From Bacteroidota bacterium (GTDB lineage: Bacteria > Bacteroidota > Bacteroidia > 2-12-FULL-35-15): 64,000 nucleotides of DNA. A program made the translations under genes and the position numbers. Below, piece after piece: positions 899-41,271 of the stretch; position 1 is the first letter of the stretch; the number at the start of each line of letters is the position of its first letter. The DNA lies in assembly GCA_040387415.1 (NCBI GenBank), contig JAZKDU010000004.1, positions 185,231-249,230 on the forward strand, written 5' to 3'. The notes beneath the pieces were generated by a model that worked only from the letters and a program-made list of their open reading frames with translations, was not told the DNA's origin and did not search any database.

Positions 899-1184
899 AC
901 GTTTTTTATTTGAAAACAAATGTAAGGTTTTTTGATTTCTTATTGTTTTAACTTGCAGCCAAAATTCCGGTAAAAACAGTTTGCTTTTGGGTTTGTCTGA
1001 CCGAATTTGTTTGCTGAAGTTTGATTTACGAGTATTATTATTCATGAATTGAAACTATAATGAATGGTTTTCGTAGAAAGGATTTGGGTTTTATTAATTT
1101 TAAACAAGGAAATTCAAATTGTTATTACTATTAAAAAAACAGTGCAACTTTTTAAGTGATTATGACATCTAAGTAGTATAATTG

Positions 1185-1193
1185 TTTTTTTTT
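1185..1193 (+). promoter_or_regulatory. T9 homopolymer tract in the promoter region about 55 bp upstream of the giant adhesin gene start
   Basis: The run gtttttttttg (9 T) is seen directly in the divergent yicC / giant-gene intergenic region. Promoter-spacer homopolymers are a known length-dependent expression switch. Confidence 0.3.
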
Positions 1194-1247
1194 GTAAATT
1201 CAACAGGGATTGTCATTTAAAAAATTGAAATTTTTTAATAAAAAAAC

Positions 1248-4200
1248 ATGAAAAAAGCTTTACTTTTTCTTACTGCAAAGACACTTTTTTTATTGTTTTT
1301 TTTGAGTCTGACGACCCTAAGGTCTTTTTCTCAAAGTGGCAGTGTAACTATTTCTCAAAATGTTCCAACATCCGTTACTGTATGTGGGAGCACCGCCTTT
1401 TCATTAAATGTTAAAAACATTACAGGAAGTAATTTAAGTGGATTGTTACTCAATATTTCGATGCCCGGAGGTGTAAATTATATTCCGGGATCAATAAGCA
1501 GTATTCCCTCGGGTGTGACGCAATCCAATATATCAAATTTACAAAGTCCTATATTTACGGTTCCTACTTTAGGCCCCTTCGCCTTTATTACGATTGCCTT
1601 TGAAGCAACAGTCGATTGTAACATTATTGCATACCAAAGCGGAGGAAATCCGATAGTTAATATTGCAAAAATAACCTACCCGAATTTAACTACCGATCAA
1701 AATACTTCTATCACTTATAATGTAAATGCTCCGTCATTGGCAATATCAACTTTTATCAACCAAACCTTTACAGCCATTATTGGAACAACTTTTACAAGAA
1801 GTATTACAATAACAAACAGCGGTTCCGGTTCATTGTCTTCATTTGTATTTACAGATATACACGGTAACGAAATAGATATTTTTGCGGCAACTCCAGGCAC
1901 TCTCTCGGGTAATATTACAAATGATACTGTAAAAATTTCTGGTGGTAATTTTACAACAGTAGGAGATAATGATTCCTTATTTGAAAACGGTGAAAGTATT
2001 ACTATTGTAGAAAGCATCAAAATACTCAAATGCAGTCAAACAGGCGTCCCTTCAAGCATTAAAGCGGTCTGGAGCTGTAATAGCCAAACCTGTCAGACAA
2101 TCACAACAACGGCTAATATTACTGTTCCTCCTGCCGGAACGCCAGAGTTGGTTATCACACCTACGGAATCATTTGAAACCTGTTTGGATAACACTACAGC
2201 GCGTGAACAATCCTTGAGCATTGTAAATAATGGTTCGGGACCCGCAAACAATATATTTCTGGATATTTATCAAGGGCATTTTACAAGTCCGAATAGTAAT
2301 TATGTAACAAGGATTGATGAGAACAGTTTTACTTATCAAATAGGAATTAACGGCACTCCAACGCCATTAGCAGCGGACAGCGCTTTAAATAATAATCCAT
2401 ACCTATGTCTTGGCCCGGTTCCTAAATACTATGTTTATCTGCATCTGCCGGTATATATCAGCCCGGTAACTGATACGGTTTATCTGAAATGGAATTCGTT
2501 TGCCTGCTGCCAGTCAACCAGTTGCGACAGCTCCTTTCTAACGGCAGTTGCTCCATGGGAGTTTAAAGGAAGATATACGGATGCCTGCGATACGGTAAAT
2601 GTTTATGATATATTTCCTACTGCTGGCGGGGATATCTATGGAAGATATCTCAACACTTCCATGGCCCCTGAAGATATGCCAACAGACATTTCAGATGGCA
2701 GCACGAGTACGTTTGAGCATTTGGTGACCAACTGGCAGAATGAACTTGATTCATCACCAGGAGCCTATTACCAGGTTCAGGTTACTATTCCGCCATGTTT
2801 TACACTTGCCGCAGGCGCTTCATCAATACGGTTCAGATACAATCCTAATGGAACGTTATGGCTACCCACATCGCCTATAACAATATCCGGAAATGTGGCT
2901 ACGGCTATTTTCGCAACGCCTGATCCGTTTGGTGTGAACGGCCTTAGTCAGGCATCTCTGCTTTTTGATTTAGTTTCCGATTGCTCAAGTTGCCCAATTG
3001 CTCAGCAAACGGGGCAAAGCGTTGCTGTAGATATAAAATATAATCCTGATCCCTCGTGTTCAAACCCTTGTTTACTAAAAGTATATTGCAATTCAAATAT
3101 TGTAAACCTGCATTGTGGAAGTAGCGATTGTCCTGGTGGAGGAATCAATTTTGTAAGTTATAAAATGGAGCGTACAAGCTATGGGTTGCCTGATAATAAT
3201 GATGACGGATTACCTGAAGCCGGAAGTGTAAATCTTAGTTTGATTAAAACACGGAGAGCAATGACCGGAGATACTCTTACCGGTTATTTTAAAGGCCTTA
3301 TTGACACTTCGCTGGCTAATCCAACATTTTCACATGTTTACGCCTCTGCCACAATAAATAACTTAGGTACCTACATTACATTTATCGATGCCAATGTTAG
3401 AATCTATGATGCCAGCACCGGCACTACCTATAGTTGTAATAATGTGCCTCCGCTATCTTCCGCACCAAGCGGAAATAATTTTGTTTCTACATTTGATGTG
3501 AGTCCATCGTATTTGAATACCAATGGCTGTGGAATACCACCCGGGTTTCTTTTTGAAGAAGGCGATTCCGTTTTGCTGAATCACCGATACAAGGTTACAG
3601 GAAATACAGGCGGTACTGTAGTTTCAAGCAATACCACCACCGATTTTTATGCCAGCAATGTTCCTAATCCCCCGCCAAATCCAGTTCCTGCGGACAGATT
3701 TACCTGTGATAATTTTTCAGGAAATTATCTTTCCCTTTACGGATTTTATTTTGCGAGCGATACCATTGGTACCTATGTTGCAAAGTCCTGTAATACACCC
3801 ACAGTAAGGAACACCAATTTGTTAAGTATAGGGCCTTGCTGTCAGAATTATGGCAGCAATAAATTCCCATTTGAATATCGCCCATGGGCCAATATTGATA
3901 CGGTGAAAGTGGTGATACCTTTTGGTTACGATTATGTTTCAGCTACCGCAAATGGAATTGGGCAGTCTACAACCGTTATTAATCCTCTGAATCCGTTATC
4001 AGATACGTTGATATTTGATATGGGTGCCCTATACACTGGCGGTACCTGGCCGAATTACAGTTTTGATGGATACCATAATACTGTTCAGGTTAAATTAACA
4101 CCAACCTGTAATGTAACAAACAGCATACTTAACCCTGTTAAATTTGACGAAACACATGAAAAAGTTCCCTTTATTGGCGGTGGATATTCAACAGTAAGCC

Positions 4201-7200
4201 TTACAGATTTTATAGCGTATACAGCACCTGTTTTTAATATTCAGTCCACGCTGCAAACCGTTGATGGTATTGATAATATTGAAAGCTGGGAAATAACGGT
4301 ATGTAATTTATCAAACAACTCAACAGCTAATAATTCCTGGCTGAGTTTTGTTTCACCAAACAGTAATATCAGTGTAATAGATGTAATAGATACAACAACG
4401 CATACCATTGTGCCGTCAGTGGGCGGTATTTACCAGATTGGTTCAAGACCATTTAATTCCTGTGCTACTTATGCCATCCGGTTTACATACAGTGCCTGCT
4501 CAAAAGATAGTTTAATTGTAAATGCGGGTTGGAATTGCAGCGGTTATCCTCCTTCATTATCTGCTTACCCCTGCGTTCCGAAAACATATCCTCTTTTTGT
4601 GGATCCGAAACCTGCAGGAATACAGATGCTGATTGCCGGTCCTGCAAGAGATACGGTGAATTTGTGCGATACTACAAGATATCAGGTAACAATTAACAGT
4701 GTGCTTGTAGCTTCTGTTTATAATATTGTGGTTAAAGCCGCTCTTCCATCCGGTATGTCTATAGTACCGGGTACATCGGAAATTCTTTATCCTGAAACCC
4801 CCGTTGTATGGAGCCCTATATCCGATCCTGTTGCCGATCAATGGCATTTGTCTGACTCTGTTTTACAACTGGCTAGCGGTTTGCCCGGAGCGGGCTCCCC
4901 TGCTGCAGATCAATTGCGGATACGATTCAAAATACGTCCTGATTGCGGATATATTTCAGGAAGTACGGTGCCTTTTTCAACAACATCTACTGATATCTGC
5001 GGTCAAAGTCTTCCTACACAATATGCTACTTCAGGGCCCTTATATATACAAGGGGTGGAACAGCTGAATGTCACCACAACGAACGTTACGATAAATCCAA
5101 TCAGCCCCTGCGGAAGCCCATCTCTGGTTAAGGTTCGGGTGCTGAATGTCGGACCAACCGCGACCACCGGTAATGAGCATTTTAATTTCCCTCTTAATAC
5201 GGGGGCAAATTATGTTCCTGGTTCATTTGTTGGATTGCATAATCCTCCTCCAATTGCTATACCATCTACAGCAAGCATAAACGGAGAAAATTACATGGAC
5301 TGGCAATTTCCCGTTGGTGTAGCACCGCTGGATACGGTGGTGTTTAATTTCTTTATTCAGGTGAATCCGGATTCTGTCAATTGCTCTTCTGTGTTGTTTC
5401 CTGTTAAAACAACAGGAGCCTTTAGTGCTACCTGTATCGCAGATAACAGCATTTGTATTATACGGGCAATAACCAGTGCTGCCGCTATTACTGTTCCGGT
5501 TAATAAACCTTGTTTGACTGTTACCGCCCTCGATGCCAGCTCACAGCCTGCCGGTGGTGGTGAAAATATGTTGGTAGATTATACGGTATTCAACTCCTGC
5601 GGTGATAAAGCAACCGGTTTACCGGTTACTGTTTATTTTTATTTCGACAATGACAATAACGGTCTGCATTCCCCTGGCGATACGTTAATTGGAACCAATA
5701 CATTTACTGATTCATTGCTTTCCAATACAGGGAATACGTATAACAACGTAAGCTTTTTTACGTCCACAGTGGCTTCCTGTTCTATTTTGGCAGTGATTGA
5801 TACTTCTTTCAATTCATGTACTTGCGCGAATAGTTTGATAGCATCAACTATTCCGTTGCTAAACGCTGGATTGGACAGTTCTTTTTGTTCAGGCGACAGC
5901 TTAACAATAGGGTTAGCGGCAACAACAGGATATACGTATTTGTGGGCACCGGTAACGGGTTTAAGTAATACAACTGCTTCCAGCACCAAGGTTACTCTTA
6001 CTAATATTAGTTCTGCTCCGGTAACTCATGTTTATACTTTAACAACAGATCGCGGTGCTTGTGTTAGTGTAGATACGGTGAATATTACTGTTAATCCGAT
6101 ACCTTCAGCAATTGCAACGCCTACGTCACAAACATTCTGTTCCGGTGACAGCACTTCCATAGCGTTGTCAAGTAATACAACCGGGAGCACATTTTCGTGG
6201 GTTGTTAATCAATCCGGTGTAACCGGAGCTACAGCCGATTCAGGTGCTGTTATTATACAAACACTTTTAACTACGGGCTCAGTTGCCGGTACAGCAACTT
6301 ATACAATTACTCCTTCAGCAAACGGTTGTGCCGGAAGTTCTGTAACAGCTTCAATTACTGTAAATCCGGTGGATGCCAGTGCTGCTTTTAATTATACTTC
6401 GGGTACGTATTGTCAGTCAGGATCAAATCAAACACCCACCATCAATGGCTTACCGGGTGGTACGTTCACCTTTACTCCCGGAGGATTGATTATTAATTCT
6501 TCCACCGGAACTATTAATTTATCAGCAAGCACATTAGGCACCTATCTGGTAACCTATACAACCACCGGTATTTGTCCGAAAATGAATACAGTAGCTGTTA
6601 CAATTACCAATGTTACACCTTCTGCGGCCTTCAGTTATCCCAATTCTTCGTATTGCCCGAACGGCAGCAATCCATTACCGGTGTTTGCATCCGGAGCGAG
6701 TGCTGGTATATTCACCGCAACGCCTTCGGGGTTGGTTTTTGTGAATTCAAATACCGGTCAGATCGATCTGACTTTAAGCACACCGGGTACATACACAGTT
6801 ATTAATACAATTCCGGCCAGTGGGTCTTGTCTGGCTGCCACAGCTACATCAACTATTACCATTGCGCTGGATGATGCTTCTTTTGTGTACACTTCTGCTA
6901 CCTATTGTTTGTCGGGGACAGATCCGACACCAACAGTAACAGGCTTAGCCGGTGGCACATTTTCAGCCACACCTTCCGGTTTATCAATTAACCCGTCAAC
7001 AGGTGTTATCGACCTTTCTGCAAGTACCGTAGCTGCCTATACATTAAGTTACACAACAAATGGCAATTGCCCTAATACAAGCTCTATACTGATGACTATT
7101 GACAGTGTTAGCCCTTCTGCTGTTTTCAGTTACTCAAATTCTACATTCTGTCAAAACAGTAATAACCCATTACCAATATATGCTGCGGGCGGAAGTGCAG

Positions 7201-10200
7201 GTATATATACTGCGAGCCCTGCCGGTATGGCATTTGTTCATATTAACACGGGTGAAATTGATCTGGCACTCAGTACTCCTGGTACTTATACCGTTACCAA
7301 TACTATTCCAGCAAGTGGTACCTGTTTTGCCACTTTTGATACTACCACAGTTGTTATTACATCAGCTGATAATGCTTCTTTTAGTTATGCTTCCGGAACA
7401 TATTGTACATCGGGGACTAACCCAACACCCGCTGTAACAGGTATCTCCGGTGGAACGTTTTCTTCAAGCCCTGCGGGGTTATCTATTAATGCATCAACAG
7501 GTACAATAAATCTTGCAACAAGCTTGCTGGGCGCTTATGCGGTGATGTATACAACAAATGGCACTTGTCCGAACAGCAGCTCGTTAACTATAACGATTGG
7601 TAATACAACTCCATCCGCAACGTTTGCTTATTCGGGATCAAGCTTCTGCCAGAATGGTGGAAATCCGACTCCGATCTTCGCTTCGGGAGCAAGTGCGGGA
7701 ACATTTTCGGCCACTCCCGCAGGATTGTCATTTGTAAATACAACTACTGGAGAGATCAATATGTCCCAGAGTTTGCTTGGAACTTATACGATTGTTAATA
7801 CAATTCCTGCAAGTGGCAGCTGTTTGGCAGTGAGCGCTACAACTACTTTTAGCATTGTTATTGATGATGCATCATTTACCTATACATCGGCAACATATTG
7901 TCAGTCAGGAACCAATCCTACACCAACTATAACCGGACTGCCGGGAGGTACTTTCTCTTCCGTCCCTACAGGATTAGTTATTAATCCGACAACAGGAACG
8001 ATAAACCTTTCAACAAGTGCCTTAGGCACATATACACTAAGCTATACAACAAATGGCCTTTGCTCCAGCACAAGTTCTATAACCATGACAATAGGCAATA
8101 CAAACCCTGTTGCGACTTATAGTTATTCCAATGCCTCTTTTTGTCAGAATGGAACAGATCCTTACCCAGTGTTTGCTTCCGGTGCCAGCGCAGGTATATT
8201 TTCTGCTGTACCTTCGGGTTTAAGTTTTGTTCATGTGAATACAGGACAGATTGATTTATCAACAAGTACTCCGGGTACTTATACTGTTACCAATGCTATT
8301 CCTGCAAGTGGCAGCTGCCTTGCAACTTTTGCAAGCACAACAGTAATTATCACACCTTCTGATAACGCGTCCTTTCATTATTCTTCTGGAACATATTGTC
8401 AGTCGGGTGGCAATCAAACACCCGTAATTACAGGGGTGTTGGGCGGTACCTTTTCAGCTGTTCCGGCAGGGTTATCGGTTGACACTTTAACAGGTGTAAT
8501 TGATTTAGCATCCAGTTCTTTAGGTGTATATATGGTTTCCTACACAACAAGTGGTGCGTGTCAGAATACGAGTTCCCTGGCTATTACTATAGCAAATACA
8601 ACGCCACCCGCCAACTTTAATTATTCGGGTTCACCGTTTTGTCAATCGGGAAACAATCCGTATCCGGTTTTTGGAACAGGTGCCAGTGCAGGTGTATTTT
8701 CTGCTGTTCCGGCAGGACTGGTATTTGTAAATGTTAATACGGGTGAAATTGACCTAACACTAAGCGCCCAAGGTACATATACAATAACAAATACAATTCC
8801 TACAAGCGGCACTTGTTTGGCGACAAGTGCAGTAAGCACCATTACAATTGGGTCAGGTGATGCTTCCTTTATTTATAGTTCAGGGTTTTACTGTCAATCA
8901 GGAACGAATCCAAGCCCAATTATTATTGGATTAACCGGGGGGACTTTTTCTGCAAGCCCCGCAGGACTGGTAGTTAATGCGTCAACTGGTTTGATCGACC
9001 TCGCAACAAGTTCTTTAGGCACATATACATTAACCTATACAACAAATGGTGTTTGCCCGGGTTCCAGCTCTATGCCAATGACCATAGGTACTGTTACACC
9101 ATCTGCAAGTTTCAGTTATTTGGGTTCTCAATTCTGTCAGAATGGACAAAACCCATATCCGCAGCCAGGTTCCTATTTTGGTGTGTTTTCGGCTACACCT
9201 AACGGTTTGTCTTTTGTGAATCTGAATACGGGTGAGATTAATTTAACGCAGAGCGTACCCGGAACCTATGCAGTAACCAACACGATACCAGCAAGCGGCA
9301 CATGCCTGGAAGCAAGTGCAACGACTGTGGTTATTATAACCCCTGCGGATAATGCATCATTCACGTATTCTTCAGCCACGTATTGTGAGTCTGGTGCAAA
9401 TCCAACTCCGGTAATAACCGGTTTAACAGGAGGATATTTTTCAGCAAGTCCGGCCGGCTTATCAATTAATCCAGCAACAGGAACAATAAATTTAGCAGCA
9501 AGCGCACTAAATATATATACACTCAGTTATACCACGAATGGTGTTTGTCCGAATACTACTTCAATAACAATGACAATTACTAATGTGACACCTTCTGCTG
9601 ATTTCAGTTATGCAGGTTCTCCTTTCTGTCAGTATGGAAATGATCCATATCCTCAGTTTATACAGGGGGCAAGTGCCGGGTTGTTCCTTGCTAATCCTGC
9701 AGGTTTGGTATTTGTGCATGTAAATACAGGTCAGATCGATCTGTCTGCAAGTTTGCCGGGCACCTACACCGTTTTTAATACAATTCCTGTAAGCGGCAGC
9801 TGCCTTTCTGCAAGTGCTTCCTACATCATTACCATAGATGCCGCTCCGGTGGTTACAGCAAGTGTTTCAACTCTTACTGTTTGTAATGGAGGTACAGCCA
9901 CTATATCGTTAACAAGCTCGCAGCCCGGCACAAGCTATGTGTGGAGTGTATCTCAAGCAGGCGTATCAGGGGCTGTGCCAGGTACCGGTCCGGTTATCTC
10001 AACTACTTTAACACTTACAGGAACAAACGGAGGCAGCGCTACCTATACAATTACTCCTACAGCAAATGGATGTACCGGAGTGCCAATAATAGTGCCCGTT
10101 ACGATCAGTCCTTTACCGACTTTGAATACCAGTGCTGCAATTATTACGCCTGCAAATTGTCAGGATAGCACAGGCTCGGTTCAGGGCATTGCAGTTGTTT

Positions 10201-10883
10201 CGGGCTATCCTGCATTCCAATACGAATGGCGCGATTCTGCAGGTGTAGTTGTTGGAAATGCTGCCGATCTTAATAACGTAGGTACGGGTATATATCTATT
10301 AACTGTAACAGATGCCAATGGCTGTACTACTTCGTCTTCAACTTATACAATAACTTCAACAACAGTTATTGTTGCGGCCTTTAGCGTGGATACCACAACA
10401 GGCGAAACACCTTTAACTGTAAGCTTTATAAATACCAGTACCAATGCGGTTAATTACTTATGGCAGTTTGGAACAGGGGATACTTCTACAGCCATAAACC
10501 CAACGTATACCTACATACCAACGGGAGATTTCAGTGTTTGTTTAATGGCTGATAACGGGGGAGGTTGCATGGATACTTCCTGTATGCAAATTGAAGTGTT
10601 CGTAAACTCGGTATTTGTACTCCCAAATGTATTTTCACCGAACGGGGATGATGTAAATGATGTATTTGCCGTGCAGGGAAAAGGTCTTGAAGCACTTGAT
10701 GGAGAAATATACAATCGCTGGGGACAAAAATTATTTGAATGGCATTCTGTTAGTGGAGGGTGGGATGGGAGATCTGCCAGCGGTTTATTATGTCCGGAGG
10801 GCACCTACTATTTTGTTATTAGCGCTACAGGAAAAGATGGAAAAAATTATTATGAAAGAGGTGCATTTTCTTTGGTTCATTAA
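1248..10883 (+). CDS. giant cell-surface adhesin-like protein (3211 aa) with a T9SS type-B (gliding-motility-associated) C-terminal sorting domain
   Basis: N-terminal signal peptide MKKALLFLTAKTLFLLFFLSLTTLRSFSQ. About 1000-aa N-terminal module, followed by a long array of alternating ~85-aa Cys-containing Ig/HYR-like repeats. C-terminus ...NVFSPNGDDVNDVFAVQG...IYNRWGQKLFEW...GWDG...CPEGTYYFVI... matches the gliding-motility C-terminal domain (type-B T9SS CTD) consensus. Confidence 0.85.
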   Translation: MKKALLFLTAKTLFLLFFLSLTTLRSFSQSGSVTISQNVPTSVTVCGSTAFSLNVKNITGSNLSGLLLNISMPGGVNYIPGSISSIPSGVTQSNISNLQSPIFTVPTLGPFAFITIAFEATVDCNIIAYQSGGNPIVNIAKITYPNLTTDQNTSITYNVNAPSLAISTFINQTFTAIIGTTFTRSITITNSGSGSLSSFVFTDIHGNEIDIFAATPGTLSGNITNDTVKISGGNFTTVGDNDSLFENGESITIVESIKILKCSQTGVPSSIKAVWSCNSQTCQTITTTANITVPPAGTPELVITPTESFETCLDNTTAREQSLSIVNNGSGPANNIFLDIYQGHFTSPNSNYVTRIDENSFTYQIGINGTPTPLAADSALNNNPYLCLGPVPKYYVYLHLPVYISPVTDTVYLKWNSFACCQSTSCDSSFLTAVAPWEFKGRYTDACDTVNVYDIFPTAGGDIYGRYLNTSMAPEDMPTDISDGSTSTFEHLVTNWQNELDSSPGAYYQVQVTIPPCFTLAAGASSIRFRYNPNGTLWLPTSPITISGNVATAIFATPDPFGVNGLSQASLLFDLVSDCSSCPIAQQTGQSVAVDIKYNPDPSCSNPCLLKVYCNSNIVNLHCGSSDCPGGGINFVSYKMERTSYGLPDNNDDGLPEAGSVNLSLIKTRRAMTGDTLTGYFKGLIDTSLANPTFSHVYASATINNLGTYITFIDANVRIYDASTGTTYSCNNVPPLSSAPSGNNFVSTFDVSPSYLNTNGCGIPPGFLFEEGDSVLLNHRYKVTGNTGGTVVSSNTTTDFYASNVPNPPPNPVPADRFTCDNFSGNYLSLYGFYFASDTIGTYVAKSCNTPTVRNTNLLSIGPCCQNYGSNKFPFEYRPWANIDTVKVVIPFGYDYVSATANGIGQSTTVINPLNPLSDTLIFDMGALYTGGTWPNYSFDGYHNTVQVKLTPTCNVTNSILNPVKFDETHEKVPFIGGGYSTVSLTDFIAYTAPVFNIQSTLQTVDGIDNIESWEITVCNLSNNSTANNSWLSFVSPNSNISVIDVIDTTTHTIVPSVGGIYQIGSRPFNSCATYAIRFTYSACSKDSLIVNAGWNCSGYPPSLSAYPCVPKTYPLFVDPKPAGIQMLIAGPARDTVNLCDTTRYQVTINSVLVASVYNIVVKAALPSGMSIVPGTSEILYPETPVVWSPISDPVADQWHLSDSVLQLASGLPGAGSPAADQLRIRFKIRPDCGYISGSTVPFSTTSTDICGQSLPTQYATSGPLYIQGVEQLNVTTTNVTINPISPCGSPSLVKVRVLNVGPTATTGNEHFNFPLNTGANYVPGSFVGLHNPPPIAIPSTASINGENYMDWQFPVGVAPLDTVVFNFFIQVNPDSVNCSSVLFPVKTTGAFSATCIADNSICIIRAITSAAAITVPVNKPCLTVTALDASSQPAGGGENMLVDYTVFNSCGDKATGLPVTVYFYFDNDNNGLHSPGDTLIGTNTFTDSLLSNTGNTYNNVSFFTSTVASCSILAVIDTSFNSCTCANSLIASTIPLLNAGLDSSFCSGDSLTIGLAATTGYTYLWAPVTGLSNTTASSTKVTLTNISSAPVTHVYTLTTDRGACVSVDTVNITVNPIPSAIATPTSQTFCSGDSTSIALSSNTTGSTFSWVVNQSGVTGATADSGAVIIQTLLTTGSVAGTATYTITPSANGCAGSSVTASITVNPVDASAAFNYTSGTYCQSGSNQTPTINGLPGGTFTFTPGGLIINSSTGTINLSASTLGTYLVTYTTTGICPKMNTVAVTITNVTPSAAFSYPNSSYCPNGSNPLPVFASGASAGIFTATPSGLVFVNSNTGQIDLTLSTPGTYTVINTIPASGSCLAATATSTITIALDDASFVYTSATYCLSGTDPTPTVTGLAGGTFSATPSGLSINPSTGVIDLSASTVAAYTLSYTTNGNCPNTSSILMTIDSVSPSAVFSYSNSTFCQNSNNPLPIYAAGGSAGIYTASPAGMAFVHINTGEIDLALSTPGTYTVTNTIPASGTCFATFDTTTVVITSADNASFSYASGTYCTSGTNPTPAVTGISGGTFSSSPAGLSINASTGTINLATSLLGAYAVMYTTNGTCPNSSSLTITIGNTTPSATFAYSGSSFCQNGGNPTPIFASGASAGTFSATPAGLSFVNTTTGEINMSQSLLGTYTIVNTIPASGSCLAVSATTTFSIVIDDASFTYTSATYCQSGTNPTPTITGLPGGTFSSVPTGLVINPTTGTINLSTSALGTYTLSYTTNGLCSSTSSITMTIGNTNPVATYSYSNASFCQNGTDPYPVFASGASAGIFSAVPSGLSFVHVNTGQIDLSTSTPGTYTVTNAIPASGSCLATFASTTVIITPSDNASFHYSSGTYCQSGGNQTPVITGVLGGTFSAVPAGLSVDTLTGVIDLASSSLGVYMVSYTTSGACQNTSSLAITIANTTPPANFNYSGSPFCQSGNNPYPVFGTGASAGVFSAVPAGLVFVNVNTGEIDLTLSAQGTYTITNTIPTSGTCLATSAVSTITIGSGDASFIYSSGFYCQSGTNPSPIIIGLTGGTFSASPAGLVVNASTGLIDLATSSLGTYTLTYTTNGVCPGSSSMPMTIGTVTPSASFSYLGSQFCQNGQNPYPQPGSYFGVFSATPNGLSFVNLNTGEINLTQSVPGTYAVTNTIPASGTCLEASATTVVIITPADNASFTYSSATYCESGANPTPVITGLTGGYFSASPAGLSINPATGTINLAASALNIYTLSYTTNGVCPNTTSITMTITNVTPSADFSYAGSPFCQYGNDPYPQFIQGASAGLFLANPAGLVFVHVNTGQIDLSASLPGTYTVFNTIPVSGSCLSASASYIITIDAAPVVTASVSTLTVCNGGTATISLTSSQPGTSYVWSVSQAGVSGAVPGTGPVISTTLTLTGTNGGSATYTITPTANGCTGVPIIVPVTISPLPTLNTSAAIITPANCQDSTGSVQGIAVVSGYPAFQYEWRDSAGVVVGNAADLNNVGTGIYLLTVTDANGCTTSSSTYTITSTTVIVAAFSVDTTTGETPLTVSFINTSTNAVNYLWQFGTGDTSTAINPTYTYIPTGDFSVCLMADNGGGCMDTSCMQIEVFVNSVFVLPNVFSPNGDDVNDVFAVQGKGLEALDGEIYNRWGQKLFEWHSVSGGWDGRSASGLLCPEGTYYFVISATGKDGKNYYERGAFSLVH
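6350..9830 (+). repeat. in-frame coding tandem repeat array: two alternating ~85-aa modules (period about 510 nt, about 7 double units) inside giant adhesin 1
   Basis: Protein repeats recur about 14 times. One module is ...ASF.YTS.TYCQSGTNPTP.ITGL.GGTFS..P.GL.IN..TGTI.L..S.LG.YT..YTTNG.CP..SS.T.TI.N..P. The other is SA.FSY..S.FCQNG.NP.P.FASGASAG.FSA.PAGL.FV..NTG.IDL..S.PGTYT..NTIPASGSCLA. The matching high DNA self-similarity is visible. Confidence 0.8.
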
Positions 10884-11002
10884 ACCCAGGATTTCATTTT
10901 TGATTTAAATCCCTCCAAAATACTCTTTTGTACTCCTTAATTGGTGTTCTGATGAGATGAAAAAATAATTATATTATTCGAGAGTAATAAAGGCATTCAG
11001 AT

Positions 11003-11033
11003 TGATTTTATCCGACATTATACTTAAATTTGC
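11003..11033 (+). promoter_or_regulatory. candidate Bacteroidota sigma-A promoter (TTG ... N20 ... TAAATTTG) for giant adhesin 2
   Basis: TTG at 11003-11005 and TAAATTTG at 11026-11033 match the Bacteroidetes -33 TTG / -7 TAnnTTTG consensus, with a 20-nt spacer. Confidence 0.35.
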
Positions 11034-11180
11034 AAGGAGTTGTAGCACGTTTCGTTTATCGATTTTTCATGAAGAAAATACCTGATTCGAATATTTAAAA
11101 TGCAACCAAATTTTAATTTATAGTGTCTTGTATTTTATGGAGCGTTGGTTGTTCCATGTTTATCTGGCAAAACAGCAAGC

Positions 11181-14100
11181 ATGAAAAAAGGATTTCTGAT
11201 AGTTTTACTCTTCCTTAGTTATCAGTGCTGGAGCCAGAGCAACATGGTGACTATTTCAAGTGTTGTTCCTTCCAGCTTAACTATTTGCGGTGATGCTAAA
11301 CTTTTTACCGTTACTATTTATAATCCTTCGCCTTTTTTAATTACCAACGCTGTTTTAAAAGTTACTTTGCCAACAGGCATCCTTTCGCAAGGTCCTTCTG
11401 TTACGGGAGGAACTTTTGTAAATAATTTTGGAGGAATTTTAACTGTTAATTTAACAAATATCCCAACGTTATCAAGTCGTGTAGTAACATTTTTAGCTAC
11501 AGCTCAGTGCAACGTACTCACTTTTATTTCTGGCGGGGGGGTTATAAAAAATCAGGCACGTCTTAATTATACCGCTAATAACATGGCGCAGACGGATGCC
11601 GTAAACTCTTTAATTTATTTAATAAAACAGCCCAACCTTACCATTACAAGTATTTCAAACCAATCATATGTAGGAAACATAGGGGATGTGTTTTCAAGGT
11701 GTATTACTATTATTAATGGTGGTTTTGGAGGGCTTAGCGGTTTTACGTTAACAGATATCCATGCCTCAGGTGTGCAGATTAATGCTGTAAATAAAGGAAC
11801 GCTAACCAATGTTGGGTTAACCGCTAAAGTAGTAATCGATGGCGTTGATTTTGCAGGGGTTGGGAATGGGGATAATGTGTTTGATGGTGGCGAGAGTATA
11901 ACAATATGCGAAACGGTAACCGTGCTTAATTGTATTTCGGCCGTATCTAATTTTAAAGCATTTTGGGGTTGTAGTGTAAATTTTTGCCAGGCAACGGTAT
12001 CTACCGCAAACGTTGTATTTCCGAATTATGTTCCGAATCTTGTTGTAACTCCAACAGCCTCTATGAATTCATGTCTTGGCGCAGGAAATGCTAACGCACA
12101 GCAACTAAAAATAATTAATAAAGGGTTAGGGCAGGCAGTTAATGTGTTGTTGGAAATTTTTCAGGCAACCGGTTCAGGATACAATGGTTCTGTTGGATCA
12201 AATATTGACGTGGCAAGTCTTACTATCCAAGTGGGAGTTGCATCGGCTGGTATTCCAATTGTTCCGACCAGCACCCAGGCTACGGCATCCTTAAATTGTA
12301 TGACAAGTCCGATTGGAAAGGTGCAGTTAACCATCCCTACAATAAATGCCGGTGATACGGTATATATAAAATGGAATTCATACAATTGTTGCTATAATTC
12401 CTGCGGTGGAAGTGTGGGGCAGCATTATATCAATGGCTGGAGATACAAAGGAACTTATTCGAGTATATGCCAGACTTCTTATGTTATTTATGAGAATTGG
12501 GGAAGGGTTTATTCCGATATTTATGGTGCTCTGACGCCTGATGGTGCTCCTTCAACTTTAAGTAACGGGCAAACAGGGACATTTAATTTTTTGTTTTCAA
12601 ATTATGGTAATAGTTTTCCTGTTGGACCTGGGGCTCACTGGAAATTTGTATTTACAGTTCCAAGTTACCCTTGTTTGACATATTCTAATATACGCATTAT
12701 AAGTTATAACGGGGGAACCTGGAACCCTACCACCGTAACAGCTTCAGGCGGAACCGTAACGGCTATTTTTAATGGAAGTCCTCCTTTTACGCTGACGCAG
12801 GCGGAGGTGAAGGTTAATCTCACGCTGGTTTGTTCCAGCTGTCCAAGCCCAACTGAGGTATTAACAGCCTTGGAGGTAAAATCATATTATATTCCGAATA
12901 ATACCTGCGGTTGTGAAATAGGTGTTTCCTGTCAAACCATACCGTTTAATATTAATTGTCCCGACCCATGCCCTGCTGGTATTCTGTTCAGTGATTTTGA
13001 TATGAGGCGCACCAGCTATGGACAGCGTGACAATGAAGTCGGGGGAGGGAATGGTATTCCTGATGGCGGGACTGTGGATTTGACGAAAATAAAAACAAAC
13101 AGATCGATGTTTGGCGACACAATTACCAGTATGTTTAGTGGGGTTGTGAATACAAGTATTTCTCATCCTACGCTTCAATATTGCTACGCTACTTCTTCTA
13201 TAAGCAATGGTAATTTGTTGACTTTTCTGGATGCGCAATTGCTGATTTACCGTTCGGGATCTCTGCTCGCAACCTGCAATAGCGGCTTTGTTCCAACAAT
13301 AACAGACGCTGGCACAACCAGATTGTTTTCGTACGATCTTAGTGTCCCTGCATTGGTAGCTAGCGGATGCTTGCCTAATACACATATCAATACAGAAGGT
13401 GATTCGCTTGTATTTAAACCACGATACAGGGTATCTACAAATATTAGAAATGCAACACCTCTAAATTGCTATTCGACTAATAAATTTTATTTGAGCGATA
13501 TTGCTGATCCTACTGCAGCGTCCGATAAGTATCAATGTGGAAACATTAATGGTAATTTTACGGTTATTGGTTACTGGTTTCAAAATTGGGGCGGAAGCAA
13601 TTACGGAGTAAAATCTTGCGACAACACTCGTATTAGTCAAAATTACTATTTAAGCATCGGTCCAGGACATACGAATGATGCAGGAGGAAATTTATTTCCT
13701 TTTGAATATCGTAATTGGGCACACATTAAAACACTAACTGCCACTATACCTGCCGGCTATGATTTTATTTCGGCAGAATTTACTAATGTGCGGACAGCAG
13801 GAACATTAGGAACCAGCTCTAGTGGGGTTACTCCAATAACACCAATAAATAGTAATTCGGACACTCTTGTTTTTAATGTGGAGCCCTATTTTTCTGGTTA
13901 TGGAGGATTATTTCCGTTAGGAGACGATGGCTTTTACGGAGTATTTGATGTTATAATTCAACCTAGCTGTGAAGTAGTACCGGAAGTCGATCTTCCTATA
14001 CTGCATGATTTCACATTTTCGCCAAATACTTATTTAACTGGTCCGGGAAGTGACACAACATTTTTATCCCAAATAGATGATCATGTTATTTATGATGGTC

Positions 14101-17100
14101 CGGACCTGTTTATTCAGTCACCCTTACCATCAATTCTTGCTCTTGACAGTTTGGAAAGTTGGGATATTATAATATCTAACACTTCCAATGTTGCTGACGC
14201 CTTGAATACCTGGATTAGTGGGCCTGTAATGTCTGGAATAACCATTAAAAGTGTGGTAGATTTAGGAACAGGCCTGCCGATAATCCCTATTGGTGATATT
14301 TATCCGATAGGAGTTGTAAGTGCAATGGCTACAAGAACTTTCAGGATAACGGCAGGGTATACCTCCTGTAATCAGGATAGTGTAATAGCCTATGTTGGCT
14401 GGAACTGCCAGGATGGGTATCCAACGAGTGTATCTACATACCCTTGTACTCCGGAACGAATCACTTTTACTTTAACACCACTATCCCCGGGATTTGTAGC
14501 AGATATTACCGGACCGGCAAGCGCCATACAGCTGTGTGATACAACTACTTTTAATGTGGAAGCGGCAAATGCGCAGCTGGGTTCAGCTTATCACGTAAAC
14601 GTTACAGGAACCTTACCCGTTGGTATGGATATTATTCCTGGTTCATCCCAACTTAGTTACACCCACTTAAGTCCTTATCTTACTATTTCGGATCCTGTTT
14701 TTGTCAGCGGAACAACATGGAAATGGAATATTTCAGCAGCAAACAACACTATCAACACTACAGGACTTGTTGGAATTCTGGATACAGCTTCTAATTCTTT
14801 CAATCTCAAGTTTAAGGTAGCAACAGATTGTGGTTTTATTTCTGGAAGTAATATTGATTTTAAAATTTTGGCAGATGCATCCTGCGGACTTGCTGCTGAA
14901 CCGCAAATATTTAGTTCGCCTGGTTTAGATATTATTGGTGCTACTAATCCGTACAATACTACCGTTAAATTAAGTACTACTTATGTATCACCCTGTGCAG
15001 GTAATTCAACTATTAGAATTGTAGTTAGAAATGACGGATTTACACCTTTTGGTGTTACAGATTCTGTTGTAGTTACGTTGCCCGTTGGTGTGCCTTATGT
15101 TTCAGGCTCTTTTTCAGGAATTCATAACGCACCAAGTAATGGAACACCTTCTATTAAATACGTAAGCGGGTTAACGTACTTAACCTGGAAGCTGCCACCT
15201 GGTGTAATTACAGGCGACAGTGCTGTGTTTACTTTTGAATATGTCGGGGATCCGAACTCATTATCATGCGGTATTATATTTTTTGACGCAGTGAGTTATA
15301 GTGTCAGCACAGTTGTTTGTGTTGCTACGGGTAATACGTGTGTAACCAATATTGTTACCGGAGATACATCTCTGGCCGTTTTTACGTATAAGGCTTATCT
15401 TTATCTTAGTAACGGTTATGGTACGACAGTGCCAAATCCTCCGGGAGGAGAAACAGTGACACTAAGCTATGATATAACAAATACAGGACAGGCTATTTTA
15501 ACAGATGCAGATTCCATTGTACAGTTTTATTTTGACACCAATAGTAATGGAATATATGATATAAGCGATGCGTTTTTGTATGCCGACACCCTGATAATAC
15601 CTAAAGACAGCACTGTTCGGTTCTCGTCAACATTTGATGTTCCTGCAGGCCAGGGTTGCTCAATTATTGCTAAAATAGATCCTTTTGTTAACGCTTGTGT
15701 TTGTAATCCTTCAGAATTGCAGATTGCTCCATTACGTTTAATTAGTTTAGGAAACGATACTACCATTTGTTCCGTTAATACAATGGTAATGAGTGCACCT
15801 CCCGTTACGGGTTATACTTATACCTGGACTCCTGCAACTGATTTAAGCAGTGCAAGTATATCCAATCCGGTTTTAACAGCGTCCAATGGGACAACAGCAC
15901 CGGTTTCAACTACCTATTTTCTTGCAACAAACAGAATAGGCTGTACTTCAACCGATACGATAATAATAACAGTGAACCCATTACCTTTTGCAGCTATTGC
16001 AGGAACCACAAGTGTTTGTGTAAACGCAGTAGCTCCGGATATCACCTTTACGGGTTCTGGTTCTACCCCGCCTTATACATTTACATATTCAATTAATGGA
16101 GCTCCCGATCTTACTGTAACCAGTGCAGGAAATACAGCAACCGTGGCAGCTCCAACAACTGTTGCGGGAACTTATATATATAATCTGATTAGTGTAGTGG
16201 ATGCCAGCTCAACCACCTGCAGTCAGGCTCAGACCGGAAGCGCAACGATAACGGTTAACCCTTTGCCTACAGCAACTGTTGCTAATTTGGGATCAACGGC
16301 AGCTTGTGAAGGCGCTTCACAACCAACTTTTGTATTTAAAGGAACCGGAGGTACAGCCCCTTATACCATTACTTATACTATCAATGGCGGTACAAACCAA
16401 ACAGCAACTACTGCTGCCGGTGATAGTGTTGTCGTTTCAGTATCTACAGCTGTTCCAGGAGCTTATGTATATGCACTTGTGAGTGTGCAGGATGTAAGTT
16501 CCACAACCTGCTTTAATACGCAGTCAGGAAATGCTACCGTAACAATAAACCCGCTACCAACTGCTACTATTGAAGGATCGGTTTATATATGTAAGGGCGC
16601 TAATTCACCCGACATTATTTTTGTAGGCGCTACCGGTACGCCACCTTATACATTTACCTATACAATAAATGGAGGTTCTAATCAAACAGTAAGCACCTCT
16701 GGCGGGGATACTGCAAGAGTGCCCGTTTCAACAGTAATTGATGGTACATTTGTATATACATTGGTAAGTGTAATTGATGCGAGTTCAACCACCTGCTCAC
16801 AACTTCAGGGAGGTACAGCAACCGTTGTAGTAGAACCACTGCCCACCGCTACTCTTACCGGAACAATTACAGTGTGTCAAACTGCTGCAGCACAAATTAC
16901 ATTTAAAGGGTTTGGAGGGGTTCCACCGTATACTTTCCTTTATGATTTGAATGGGGTTGTCCAACCAACAGTTACAACAACTGCAGGTTTAGACAGCCTT
17001 ATATTGCCAGTACCTACTTCTGCTACCGGAGTGTTTAACTATTCATTAATAAGCGTTCAGGATGCAAATATTATATCATGTACACATCCGCAAACGGGAG

Positions 17101-19193
17101 ATGCTATAATAACGGTTGATCCTAAGCCGGTAGCTGATTTTTCCTTTACTAACGTGTGTCATGGAAATGCAACAGTTTTCAGCGATAGCTCTGTTACTGC
17201 GTACGGTACAATAACCAATTGGACATGGGATTTTGGCGATAGCACTGCGGTAAATATATTATCCGACCCTTCTTATATTTATCCATATGCGGGTATTCAT
17301 ACTACTACTTTGTATATTGTTAATAATTTTGCTTGTAAAGATACTATAACGCAGCCTGTTCAGGTGTATTACAATCCGGTAGTTAGTTTTACTCATAATA
17401 ATGAATGTTTTGGAGATACGATACATTTTACAAACACTTCATCTGTTCATATGTCCACCACCATTTCCAGCTATTTGTGGGTTTTTGGGGATGGCAGTTC
17501 AACAAGTAATTTAACTAATCCTGTTCATTATTATTCAAATCCGGGAACATATAATGTTACATTGGTTGCCACCACAGCAAATAATTGTTCCGGTGTAGCG
17601 AACAATCCTGTAAAAGCTTTTGATCCGCCAACATCCGCCTTTACCTTTACAAATACCTGTTTGCTTGATTCAGCGGTATTTACAAACACTTCTACAAATC
17701 CGGTGTTTGTAAGCGGTACCATTTCAAGTTGGTCATGGGACTTTGGAGATAGCACACCTTTAAATACTACTATCTATAATCCGCATCATTTGTATGCGGC
17801 ACCAGGAGTATATCAGGTAACGTTAATTACTCATTCATCTAACCTTGGTTGTCCGGATACGATTACACATCCAATTACCGTATACCCTATGCCGGTAGCT
17901 GATTTTAGTTTTATGGATGTATGTTTAAACCAAACTATGAGTTTTTATGATTCCTCAGATGTTTCGGTTGGTACCATATCGGCATGGACCTGGGATTTTG
18001 GTGATGTAAGTTCTGATGATAACACACAAAATCCCACTCACTTATACGCCAACCCTGGTACATATATCGTAACCTTTGCTTCATCCAGTAGTAACGGTTG
18101 CTGGGACACAGTTCAAAAAAGTGTGGTAGTGCATCCATTGCCTGCGGTAGATTTTAGTGCGATAAATGTTTGTGATGGAAGTACGATGTATTTTTATGAT
18201 TCAACAACTATTTTATTAACAGATACACTTAATTCATGGGCATGGGATTTTGGAGATAGCAGCGCTGTTAGTAACAGTCAGAATACATCGCATTTATATG
18301 CTGCTCCAGGTCCTTATAATGTTCAGCTCACAGTTACTTCAAATTTTGGGTGTGTGCAATCGTACACTAACGTTCGGATTGTAAATCCAAATCCTGTTGT
18401 TGATTTTATGGCAAGTGATACTGCCGGTTGTGAGCCATTGTGCGTTTATTTGTATGATTCGTCAACTGTTATTACAGGTACCAATGTAGCCTGGTTATGG
18501 ACTTTTGGTGACAGCACATCAACAAGTTCGGATAAAAATTCTATTCATTGCTATTACAACGACTCTGTATTCGCAACTGTAAATTATAACGTTACTTTGA
18601 CAGTAAATTCGGACAGCGGGTGTGTAAGTACCCTAACTGTGGCCGACTATATTACAGTATATCCTAAACCGGAAGCTGACTTTTCTGTAGCTCCTTCAAC
18701 GGCAACCATTATAAACCCTGTGATTGAAATAACTGATTTATCCATTGGAACAGATTTCTGGACTTGGGATTTTGGTGATTCAGATTCCTCTTTTGTACAT
18801 AACACACCACCGCATGAATATGCAGATACCGGTGCATTTGTAATAACCCTAACAACCTCCACACAATTCGGTTGTTTGGATACCGCGTATCAGAATATTA
18901 CTATTGAGCCAGATTTTACTTTTTATGTCCCAAGTGCATTTACACCTAACGATGATGGTATGAATGATACCTTTACGGGGAAAGGGATTTTTATTAAAGA
19001 ATTTGAAATGATGATATTTGACCGTTGGGGAAATTTGGTATTCTTTTCTAACAGTTTTAATAAACCTTGGGATGGTAAAGCAAATCACGGCAGTCAATTG
19101 GCACAAAGGGATGTGTATGTTTATGTGATTAAGGTTGTTGATATAAAAGGCCTGGAGCATAACTACAAAGGTACTGTAACGCTTACGCGATAG
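11181..19193 (+). CDS. giant adhesin-like paralog (about 2670 aa): shared N-terminal module, 6 Ig-like repeats, about 9 PKD domains, T9SS type-B C-terminal domain. Start trimmed to MKKGFLIVLLF.
   Basis: Signal peptide MKKGFLIVLLFLSYQCWSQ. The N-terminal about 1000 aa align with the upstream giant protein (SNMVTISSVVPSSLTICG vs SGSVTISQNVPTSVTVCG, and the shared ...FPFEYR.WA.I.T... motifs). There are six ~95-aa repeats (PLPTATI.G...C.G...P...F.G.GGT.PYTFTYTINGG...). There are about nine PKD-type repeats with W.WDFGD. The C-terminus FYVPSAFTPNDDGMNDTF...IFDRWGNLVF...WDGK...VYVYVI fits the type-B CTD. Confidence 0.85.
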   Translation: MKKGFLIVLLFLSYQCWSQSNMVTISSVVPSSLTICGDAKLFTVTIYNPSPFLITNAVLKVTLPTGILSQGPSVTGGTFVNNFGGILTVNLTNIPTLSSRVVTFLATAQCNVLTFISGGGVIKNQARLNYTANNMAQTDAVNSLIYLIKQPNLTITSISNQSYVGNIGDVFSRCITIINGGFGGLSGFTLTDIHASGVQINAVNKGTLTNVGLTAKVVIDGVDFAGVGNGDNVFDGGESITICETVTVLNCISAVSNFKAFWGCSVNFCQATVSTANVVFPNYVPNLVVTPTASMNSCLGAGNANAQQLKIINKGLGQAVNVLLEIFQATGSGYNGSVGSNIDVASLTIQVGVASAGIPIVPTSTQATASLNCMTSPIGKVQLTIPTINAGDTVYIKWNSYNCCYNSCGGSVGQHYINGWRYKGTYSSICQTSYVIYENWGRVYSDIYGALTPDGAPSTLSNGQTGTFNFLFSNYGNSFPVGPGAHWKFVFTVPSYPCLTYSNIRIISYNGGTWNPTTVTASGGTVTAIFNGSPPFTLTQAEVKVNLTLVCSSCPSPTEVLTALEVKSYYIPNNTCGCEIGVSCQTIPFNINCPDPCPAGILFSDFDMRRTSYGQRDNEVGGGNGIPDGGTVDLTKIKTNRSMFGDTITSMFSGVVNTSISHPTLQYCYATSSISNGNLLTFLDAQLLIYRSGSLLATCNSGFVPTITDAGTTRLFSYDLSVPALVASGCLPNTHINTEGDSLVFKPRYRVSTNIRNATPLNCYSTNKFYLSDIADPTAASDKYQCGNINGNFTVIGYWFQNWGGSNYGVKSCDNTRISQNYYLSIGPGHTNDAGGNLFPFEYRNWAHIKTLTATIPAGYDFISAEFTNVRTAGTLGTSSSGVTPITPINSNSDTLVFNVEPYFSGYGGLFPLGDDGFYGVFDVIIQPSCEVVPEVDLPILHDFTFSPNTYLTGPGSDTTFLSQIDDHVIYDGPDLFIQSPLPSILALDSLESWDIIISNTSNVADALNTWISGPVMSGITIKSVVDLGTGLPIIPIGDIYPIGVVSAMATRTFRITAGYTSCNQDSVIAYVGWNCQDGYPTSVSTYPCTPERITFTLTPLSPGFVADITGPASAIQLCDTTTFNVEAANAQLGSAYHVNVTGTLPVGMDIIPGSSQLSYTHLSPYLTISDPVFVSGTTWKWNISAANNTINTTGLVGILDTASNSFNLKFKVATDCGFISGSNIDFKILADASCGLAAEPQIFSSPGLDIIGATNPYNTTVKLSTTYVSPCAGNSTIRIVVRNDGFTPFGVTDSVVVTLPVGVPYVSGSFSGIHNAPSNGTPSIKYVSGLTYLTWKLPPGVITGDSAVFTFEYVGDPNSLSCGIIFFDAVSYSVSTVVCVATGNTCVTNIVTGDTSLAVFTYKAYLYLSNGYGTTVPNPPGGETVTLSYDITNTGQAILTDADSIVQFYFDTNSNGIYDISDAFLYADTLIIPKDSTVRFSSTFDVPAGQGCSIIAKIDPFVNACVCNPSELQIAPLRLISLGNDTTICSVNTMVMSAPPVTGYTYTWTPATDLSSASISNPVLTASNGTTAPVSTTYFLATNRIGCTSTDTIIITVNPLPFAAIAGTTSVCVNAVAPDITFTGSGSTPPYTFTYSINGAPDLTVTSAGNTATVAAPTTVAGTYIYNLISVVDASSTTCSQAQTGSATITVNPLPTATVANLGSTAACEGASQPTFVFKGTGGTAPYTITYTINGGTNQTATTAAGDSVVVSVSTAVPGAYVYALVSVQDVSSTTCFNTQSGNATVTINPLPTATIEGSVYICKGANSPDIIFVGATGTPPYTFTYTINGGSNQTVSTSGGDTARVPVSTVIDGTFVYTLVSVIDASSTTCSQLQGGTATVVVEPLPTATLTGTITVCQTAAAQITFKGFGGVPPYTFLYDLNGVVQPTVTTTAGLDSLILPVPTSATGVFNYSLISVQDANIISCTHPQTGDAIITVDPKPVADFSFTNVCHGNATVFSDSSVTAYGTITNWTWDFGDSTAVNILSDPSYIYPYAGIHTTTLYIVNNFACKDTITQPVQVYYNPVVSFTHNNECFGDTIHFTNTSSVHMSTTISSYLWVFGDGSSTSNLTNPVHYYSNPGTYNVTLVATTANNCSGVANNPVKAFDPPTSAFTFTNTCLLDSAVFTNTSTNPVFVSGTISSWSWDFGDSTPLNTTIYNPHHLYAAPGVYQVTLITHSSNLGCPDTITHPITVYPMPVADFSFMDVCLNQTMSFYDSSDVSVGTISAWTWDFGDVSSDDNTQNPTHLYANPGTYIVTFASSSSNGCWDTVQKSVVVHPLPAVDFSAINVCDGSTMYFYDSTTILLTDTLNSWAWDFGDSSAVSNSQNTSHLYAAPGPYNVQLTVTSNFGCVQSYTNVRIVNPNPVVDFMASDTAGCEPLCVYLYDSSTVITGTNVAWLWTFGDSTSTSSDKNSIHCYYNDSVFATVNYNVTLTVNSDSGCVSTLTVADYITVYPKPEADFSVAPSTATIINPVIEITDLSIGTDFWTWDFGDSDSSFVHNTPPHEYADTGAFVITLTTSTQFGCLDTAYQNITIEPDFTFYVPSAFTPNDDGMNDTFTGKGIFIKEFEMMIFDRWGNLVFFSNSFNKPWDGKANHGSQLAQRDVYVYVIKVVDIKGLEHNYKGTVTLTR
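11535..11541 (+). repeat. G7 homopolymer inside the 5' coding region of giant adhesin 2
   Basis: ggc ggg ggg gtt encodes SGGGV. There are seven consecutive G in an otherwise AT-rich gene. Confidence 0.6.
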
Positions 19194-19453
19194 AGATTGC
19201 ATCTTTATTAGCCTAGATAACCCCAGCTTATAAAAATTTGTATTTTCTTCATTGGTTAGGGACAATAGAAAATTAGTAAACTTCTCATACTCATCATAGC
19301 CAAATACAACATTTTCTCTTCTTTAATCTCATTCTTGGTTGGGCTGGTGTAAAAGTAGTTGATAAGATAGGTAAATGTCATATCAATATGTAGCACCTTA
19401 TTATTAATTTTATAGCGATATTATACTAATTCTTCAAAACCAATATTTTAATT

Positions 19454-20836: not shown

Positions 20837-20898
20837 ATAGTTGATATATCCTTTTCTTTTACAAAGTCTATTCAGATTGCAACTCCTCAAATTTTAAT

Positions 20899-21327: not shown

Positions 21328-21380
21328 GGTGTTTACTATCCTTTAGCATTCGCCCCTCCGCTAAATTTTAATAAGCAAAA

Positions 21381-21414: not shown

Positions 21415-21433
21415 TATTCGGATTTTTAATACC

Positions 21434-41233: not shown

Positions 41234-41271
41234 AAAAGGTATTTATTTGATTTTCGGTTTAAAAATAGAAG

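Follow-up and report, generated by a model that had tools for sequence, protein, structure and literature searches.

The 64,000-nucleotide stretch analysed here (the window; part of contig JAZKDU010000004.1 from a Bacteroidota bacterium) carries two giant genes head-to-tail on its forward strand, gene A (positions 1248–10883, 3211 residues) and gene B (11181–19193, 2670 residues), which together occupy 17,946 bp and are separated by 297 bp, as a first-pass annotation of the same DNA had described. The two proteins share an N-terminal head of about 1500 residues and end in a type-B C-terminal sorting domain (CTD) of the T9SS (type IX secretion system), with a different stalk in each between head and CTD. 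Giant type-B cargo of this kind is already known; the head family is undescribed and the head had not been named before. The two proteins are probably surface-anchored fibres comparable to SprB and GhpA, in which the head would sit at the tip of a paralogue-specific stalk. Gene A was delimited from its open reading frame (ORF), translation, domain matches and orthologues, and gene B from its ORF, translation and an orthologue of equal length and the same synteny (P0007). The ORF of B was listed as 11145–19193, opening at a TTG codon; we place its start at the ATG at 11181, which gives the 2670 residues and the 297-bp spacer, because the orthologues start with MKK at that position.

The shared head had been estimated at about 1000 residues; its existence is borne out, at a length of about 1730 residues in the alignment. 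In a BLASTP comparison, residues 1–1743 of A match residues 1–1729 of B with 33.4% identity (768 bits, E = 0), far beyond chance, and a second segment, A 3070–3211 with B 2527–2670, takes in the PKD domain nearest the C-terminus and the CTD itself. The motifs VTIS..VP.S.T.CG, FPFEYR.WA... and ESWEI/ESWDI, quoted earlier as signs of relatedness, are all present in the A–B alignment. The head proper comprises residues 30–1537 of A (1335–5858, forward strand) and residues 20–1519 of B (11238–15737, forward strand). It is family-specific and rich in cysteine, with 41 Cys in the first 1520 residues of A, many of them invariant. No Pfam or NCBIfam model matches it, and a phmmer search with residues 1–1601 of A returned no PDB sequence at E ≤ 1.

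An AlphaFold 2 (AF2) model of residues 21–975 of B, calculated from a 19-sequence alignment, is nearly all beta-strand, with a mean predicted local distance difference test (pLDDT) score of 84.4 and a predicted template modelling score (pTM) of 0.59. The model of residues 965–1610 is likewise all-beta, with a pLDDT of 79 overall and about 85–90 up to around residue 1520; the fold of the A head is assigned from that of its B homologue. When the B head was compared with the PDB using Foldseek, only generic multi-sandwich arrays were retrieved, with TM-scores of at most 0.39: the Ig-like domains of PrgB, the C123 region of AgI/II, integrin leg domains and the MG domains of alpha-2-macroglobulin and complement. 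Among 13 diverse heads scanned, nine contain weak DUF11 matches and four contain CARDB matches; of the DUF11 matches examined, only one lies clearly above the cut-off (27.3 versus 24.6 bits), and most of the DUF11 and CARDB matches lie at or below the curated cut-off. The heads of A and B have neither, and neither protein reaches the gathering score of PF01345 or PF07705. The resemblance to DUF11 (TIGR01451) and CARDB surface proteins is that single head domains match them weakly and carry a motif in the style of xVxVxNxG...LPxG..yv.GS, but the roughly 1500-residue head is a fixed, ordered unit and not a variable repeat array. We interpret the head as roughly a dozen beta-sandwiches of DUF11/CARDB-like type strung together in a set order, presumably stabilised by disulfides and possibly binding Ca2+. 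Nothing suggests an enzymatic role for it, and searches of Pfam and NCBIfam matched no catalytic domain in either A or B. The two most strongly conserved head motifs are RTSYGxPDN..DG and FP[FY]EYRxW, located at residues 610–640 and 830–846 of B (DNA positions about 13008–13100 and 13668–13718) and at residues 642–654 and 873–880 of A.

The head defines a large family. A word-indexed search yielded 17 relatives, and a second one with a 13-sequence head profile added marginal matches only. Scanning species-representative genomes gave 208 relatives at 74 loci, all in metagenome-assembled genomes (MAGs) of uncultured Bacteroidota/Bacteroidia and often in several copies per genome, and HMMER, run exhaustively over 1.84 billion cluster representatives, gave 890 clusters at E ≤ 1e-3, 492 of them at E ≤ 1e-30. 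Across these clusters the head is nearly always N-terminal, beginning at residues 20–50, in proteins of 1.7–6.5 thousand residues. The family is almost entirely confined to uncultured Bacteroidota, with generic source names; among ten clusters looked up, one cultured carrier of the head was found, Pinibacter aurantiacus (WP_217792880.1), whose protein has a type-A CTD. The prolyl-tRNA synthetase encoded in the window is 87–92% identical to its matches, which are proteins of unclassified Bacteroidia MAGs only, and the close relatives of A and B are all from unclassified Bacteroidia/Bacteroidota MAGs, so placement in the Flavobacteriia is not supported. A delimited, conserved and unmodelled head of about 1500 residues, present in roughly 900 clusters, is the most useful product of this analysis and could become a new domain family.

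In gene A, the head is preceded by a putative signal peptide (1248–1334, residues 1–29, MKKALLFLTAKTLFLLFFLSLTTLRSFSQ) with a charged N-terminus, a hydrophobic core and small residues before the cut. It is followed by a junction of two Ig_7/PKD_5-type domains (5859–6377, residues 1538–1710; PF19406 PKD_5, E = 8.9e-16; PF19081 Ig_7, E = 1.2e-8). The main stalk (6378–9836, residues 1711–2863) consists of 14 modules of about 82 residues, arranged as seven alternating a/b pairs and each detected by an iterated hidden Markov model (HMM) with E < 1e-31. These are the alternating Cys modules recognised in the first-pass annotation: they fall into two subtypes and contain two conserved Cys apiece, and modules of one subtype share 62–63% identity as against 42% for modules of different subtypes. 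They belong to no Pfam family, and phmmer with the module array found no PDB sequence. At the nucleotide level the modules are 63–65% identical, and Tandem Repeats Finder detected no DNA-level tandem repeat in 1248–19193; the array is therefore old and not recently amplified, and recent slippage or homogenisation was rejected on the basis of the nucleotide identity. The distal stalk (9840–10604, residues 2865–3119) contains a PKD_5/Ig_7 domain (PKD_5, E = 9.5e-9), a Cys module labelled SprB-like by inspection and one PKD domain (PKD_4, E = 2.3e-11). All these features of A are on the forward strand.

The B protein, also with its features on the forward strand, begins with a putative signal peptide with typical n-, h- and c-regions, and the signal regions of both proteins are conserved in their orthologues. 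Its proximal stalk (15738–17093, residues 1520–1971) is composed of one Ig_7-like domain and four Ig(Pom152-like) modules, the latter spanning residues 1600–1971 (PF23664, E = 2.2e-11; four copies by iterated HMM). The distal stalk (17121–18899, residues 1981–2573) contains seven PKD domains, for which PF18911 matches in seven stretches (E = 6.7e-75), the iterated HMM finds seven copies and there are PKD matches in the PDB. The combination of Ig-like and PKD repeats proposed for B is thus correct, with seven PKD modules instead of the nine counted before.

The same head is carried on very different bodies, as became clear when HMMs of the stalk units were built and run on 84 head-bearing ORFs. 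The six members of the A clade have 14 A-modules and one PKD domain, and a further orthologue (P0002) has ten modules; B orthologues have four Ig_Pom152-like and seven PKD modules. Where identity to the B head exceeds 55%, heads are also found on 2 + 4 modules with three Ig_7 domains, or on 7 + 4 or 4 + 4 + 4 modules, while other clades have 11–17 Ig_7 domains with 3–15 SprB repeats, or 8–13 PKD domains. A few members combine a type-A CTD with a shorter head and unrelated FG-GAP/VCBS bodies. At the head-stalk junction (A 1435–1622), the window and related locus L005 have a block of about 190 residues, which L002–L004, L006 and P0002 lack. Because one and the same head goes with varying stalks, the module swapping suggested earlier is real at the scale of the family; each stalk architecture is stable inside its own orthologous group. 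A fixed head with exchanged stalks and CTD types amounts to a clean natural experiment in the modular assembly of T9SS fibres. Locus L006 also contains two 'headless' genes, an ORF of 1128 residues whose modules and CTD are of the A type, between an A orthologue and a B-like gene (19189–22572), and a minus-strand ORF of 1315 residues with a B-type stalk and CTD (802–4746); both could be relics or outcomes of recombination between head and stalk.

Each C-terminus exceeds the curated cut-offs of PF13585 (CHU_C, 27 bits) and TIGR04131 (type-B sorting domain, 35 bits), which agrees with the assignment made from the sequence beforehand. The CTD of A (10620–10880, residues 3125–3211) reaches 60.9 and 41.6 bits, respectively, and that of B (18927–19190, residues 2583–2670) 60.9 and 49.5 bits, and the canonical CTD motifs are visible in the alignment. 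The window also encodes two PorP/SprF proteins (TIGR03519, 251 and 243 bits) and at least five type-A CTD cargo proteins, which indicates that the organism probably has a T9SS.

By analogy with type-B cargo, A and B would be exported by the Sec system into the periplasm and cross the outer membrane via the T9SS translocon. The CTD would then be captured by an outer-membrane shuttle of PorP/SprF type whose gene lies elsewhere in the genome, an 'orphan' arrangement, and the shuttle would hold the C-terminus at the outer membrane, with the N-terminal head held away from the cell by the stalk. Scaled from GhpA, which forms fibres of 240 nm from 5898 residues, their reach may be roughly 100–130 nm. 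The head would be the business end, most likely ligand-binding, and the two paralogues would provide each cell with two different tips on two different stalks. Several observations weigh against this proposal. The signal peptides of A and B were judged by eye, and the core T9SS genes (for example sprA and gldKLMN) lie outside the 64-kb window. The last 100 residues of A, B and a third type-B protein of the window, of 467 residues, are 27–33% identical, with 27% between A and B, values from which a shuttle for A and B is not assignable; nor can the PorP/SprF proteins of the window be tied to A or B, because they are only 25–29% identical to those encoded directly downstream of the head gene in a single subclade. 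In addition, both conserved head motifs lie in the loops of lowest pLDDT in the AF2 model, a placement that would fit contact sites for a ligand, metal or partner.

Anchoring is expected from what is known of type-B cargo, which is retained at the surface by binding to a PorP/SprF-like protein (PMC9143113). The opposite proposal is that A and B are released, as matrix or biofilm components or as shed polysaccharide-binding scaffolds. Type-A CTD members of the family exist, type-A cargo can be released, and partial CBM_3 or CBM_56 matches are present in a few of the 13 heads scanned; but these matches span just 35–40 residues and fall under the cut-off, and studied type-B cargo remains on its PorP/SprF shuttle (PMC9143113). 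We regard release as very improbable.

The absence of a PorP/SprF gene next to A or B had been pointed out as an irregularity. None adjoins them, as stated, but two are present in the window, 16–19 kb away, and the arrangement is the rule for the family. Of the complete head genes, 52 have 1.5 kb or more of sequence downstream of them; in four of these a PorP/SprF gene follows at 4–47 bp, and the other 48 are orphans; it is directly downstream in none of five A-clade genes and none of 18 in the B cluster. In Flavobacterium johnsoniae, three of 12 type-B cargo proteins also have no adjacent sprF-like gene and share an unlinked shuttle, Fjoh_1677; complex predictions for cognate pairs reached ipTM values above 0.8 in that study (PMC12618676). 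Given this precedent and the 48 orphans, the missing neighbour is not anomalous; A, B and the other orphan members share their gene arrangement with the F. johnsoniae orphan cargo. A first tblastn screen, which had found a PorP/SprF gene at one of 75 loci, was an undercount, since iterated jackhmmer gave nine matches at eight related loci, four of them directly downstream. The four paired genes (L008, L009, L011 and L034) form one subclade with a PorP/SprF gene of 346–350 residues 4–47 bp 3' of the head gene and a stalk of about 12 Ig_7 domains and up to eight SprB repeats, so that paired and orphan members occur in one family. This makes the family a useful test set for the rules of CTD-shuttle pairing.

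Within the window, the only candidate shuttles are two tandem genes on the reverse strand, at 37233–38657 (474 residues) and 35455–37008 (517 residues), both identified by TIGR03519; they show no link to A or B. The first lies just downstream of the gene for the 467-residue type-B protein (38793–40196, reverse strand; PF13585, TIGR04131), and the two shuttle candidates share 55% identity.

One giant type-B protein of described function is SprB of F. johnsoniae, with its shuttle SprF, and on account of the CTD the first-pass annotation took A and B to be mobile adhesins of the same sort, that is, proteins carried along the gliding track to drive motility. SprB is, like A and B, a giant repetitive surface protein with a TIGR04131 CTD, and cargo of this type uses a PorP/SprF-family shuttle in the studied cases. 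The type-B CTD of both proteins and their size and repeat layout speak for gliding, as does the observation that an orphan type-B CTD of F. johnsoniae can send a subpopulation to the gliding track (PMC12618676). But to regard the type-B CTD as a mark of mobility is too strong: the same study shows that delivery to the gliding machinery is not a property of every type-B CTD and that some type-B cargo is static (PMC12618676). Further, PF13573 has no match in A or B at E ≤ 0.01, and a local SprB-repeat HMM finds no copies in them, against up to 15 in other members. A and B are not part of an sprCDBF operon and have no adjacent sprF, and their head is without a described counterpart in SprB. The CxC motif of the C-terminal tail, which ties SprF to GldK (PMC12635249), is also absent from both PorP/SprF proteins of the window, the only ones it encodes. 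Transport along a gliding track is accordingly improbable for A and B, if somewhat less so than release.

A further parallel is offered by GhpA of Aureispira sp. CCB-QB1 (PDB 9flp), which comprises a signal peptide, an adhesin-like N-terminal hook of about 1400 residues, an Ig-like stem and a T9SS CTD, and forms heptameric fibres of 240 nm; genes for PorP and PorE homologues lie downstream (bioRxiv 10.1101/2024.01.29.577165). A and B resemble it as giant T9SS cargo with an Ig-like stem and a large all-beta, adhesin-like N-terminal module that would be displayed at the distal tip, and the Ig_7 stem and the CTD are homologous in sequence. The family profile matches GhpA with E = 8e-187, in stretches over residues 1133–5751 and in the CTD at 5800–5886. 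The significant matches all come from profile position about 1490 onwards, that is, from the Ig_7-type stalk domains, or from the CTD, and not from the head. Homology of the head to the GhpA hook was rejected at the sequence level, as the phmmer search with residues 1–1601 of A, which covered the 5898-residue GhpA chain, gave no match to it at E ≤ 1; the folds were not compared. Differences also concern the rest of the protein: A and B are about half as long as GhpA and their stalks are built from other units, 14 modules in A and PKD and Ig_Pom152-like domains in B.

From this parallel it might be proposed that A and B are grappling hooks, copies of which bundle into a rigid fibre and catch prey or partner cells with their N-terminal heads. 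The overall layout, including an all-beta N-terminal module of about 1400–1500 residues (bioRxiv 10.1101/2024.01.29.577165), and the strong profile match to the GhpA stem and CTD are consistent with this, and the pTM of the AF2 model over 955 residues suggests a defined and not a floppy head. However, no sequence similarity between head and hook region is detectable, the A modules match no PDB sequence, the stalks are about a third of the GhpA length, ghpB (PorP), ghpC (PorE) and OmpA-like genes adjoin neither A nor B, and the window contains no sign of a type VI secretion system or of predation. A hook function in this strict sense is unlikely, more so than gliding.

A wider proposal, which we advance as speculative, is that the head represents a tip module of a new class, borne by fibres with which uncultured Bacteroidia of fresh water and soil would capture or recognise targets at long reach. 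If this were true, such fibres would be analogous to GhpA in function with an evolutionarily independent head; the tandem paralogues (A, B and a further one, B') would present several tips of differing specificity at different distances from the cell surface; and a dedicated, unlinked PorP/SprF shuttle would be common to the orphan members. Giant proteins with a type-B CTD make up a large share of the Bacteroidota surface proteome that is for the most part uncharacterised, for which SprB and GhpA are the two examples with described function compared here, the structure of GhpA having been solved. The understanding of the T9SS itself is unchanged by the present finding.

The A/B pair had been viewed as a duplicated cassette; a recent duplication is contradicted by the orthologues. 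A is 60–71% identical to its own orthologues, as B is to its own, whereas A and B are only 33–35% identical to each other, which makes them an ancient, maintained paralogy in a locus of variable copy number; a fresh duplication was rejected for the low mutual identity and the separate orthologues. The architectures of A and B orthologues are fixed in at least five related MAGs. A orthologues always adjoin yicC and B orthologues adjoin a LUD/Fe-S gene, and another metagenome contig reads, in order, an A-like C-terminus, a 339-bp gap, B (2670 residues), the LUD gene and ybeY. Variation in copy and repeat number, for which a comparison across strains had been suggested, is present: the interval from yicC to the LUD gene holds one to three head genes in related MAGs, and A orthologues have 10 or 14 modules. 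The interval contains A alone in L002 and L004; A followed 140 bp downstream by a B-like gene of 2398 residues in L005; and A, a minus-strand gene, B' (2338 residues) and B in L003/L014. In L039, a B-like gene directly follows yicC. Three B-like head genes in direct tandem were observed in L007 (at 5093, 12613 and 21752) and L025 (at 834, 8251 and 15485), with a stalk composition that differs per copy. The possibility that A or B is a pseudogene or an assembly artefact was rejected, as neither ORF is disrupted and independent assemblies agree in lengths and architectures.

The direct neighbours of the pair in the window are yicC, the LUD/Fe-S gene and ybeY; B lies 3' of A, and the LUD gene and ybeY lie 3' of B. 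For yicC (23–1045, reverse strand), listed with 340 residues, translation probably starts at a codon further downstream, because the orthologues align only from residues 36–50 onwards. The spacer between A and B (10884–11180, 297 bp, no strand assigned) is AT-rich as read from the sequence. A scan of 900–19600 for sigma-70 promoters and terminators was uninformative, with 59 promoter-like sites versus 57 expected, and the Bacteroidota-type promoter motif TTTG-N18-21-TAnnTTTG occurs twice in the window against 3.1 expected, and not upstream of A or B. The element TAAATTTG at 11025–11032 was spotted by eye between the two genes and is not claimed as a promoter. Adjoining the locus, at 21434–27916 on the reverse strand, is a gene for a type-A CTD protein of 2160 residues with a right-handed beta-helix region, which is unrelated to the head family; related contigs have a RecQ gene at that position.

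The window is dense in other type-A cargo genes, with a P-domain/CARDB protein at 33410–35026, an S8 peptidase at 53586–55334, a GEVED-domain protein of 1154 residues at 55574–59038 and a protein of 265 residues at 63052–63849. Both PorP/SprF proteins have C-terminal extensions of about 170–215 residues past the TIGR03519 barrel, each consisting of a coiled-coil-like stretch and a small domain. One of them gives a full-length, sub-threshold match to SPOR (E = 0.0017; 19.1 bits versus a cut-off of 21) and the other a weak match to CarboxypepD_reg (E = 0.006); with a peptidoglycan-binding domain fused to it, a PorP could stand in for a separate PorE. Three ORFs lie upstream of the small type-B gene, at 40532–44395 on the reverse strand, including a putative lipoprotein or beta-barrel of 233 residues. 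The 515-residue ORF has no family match and overlaps the 575-residue one by about 200 bp as listed, so that one of their start codons is probably mis-set. The 575-residue ORF encodes a FadL/PorV-like outer-membrane protein with a weak match to PorV/PorQ.

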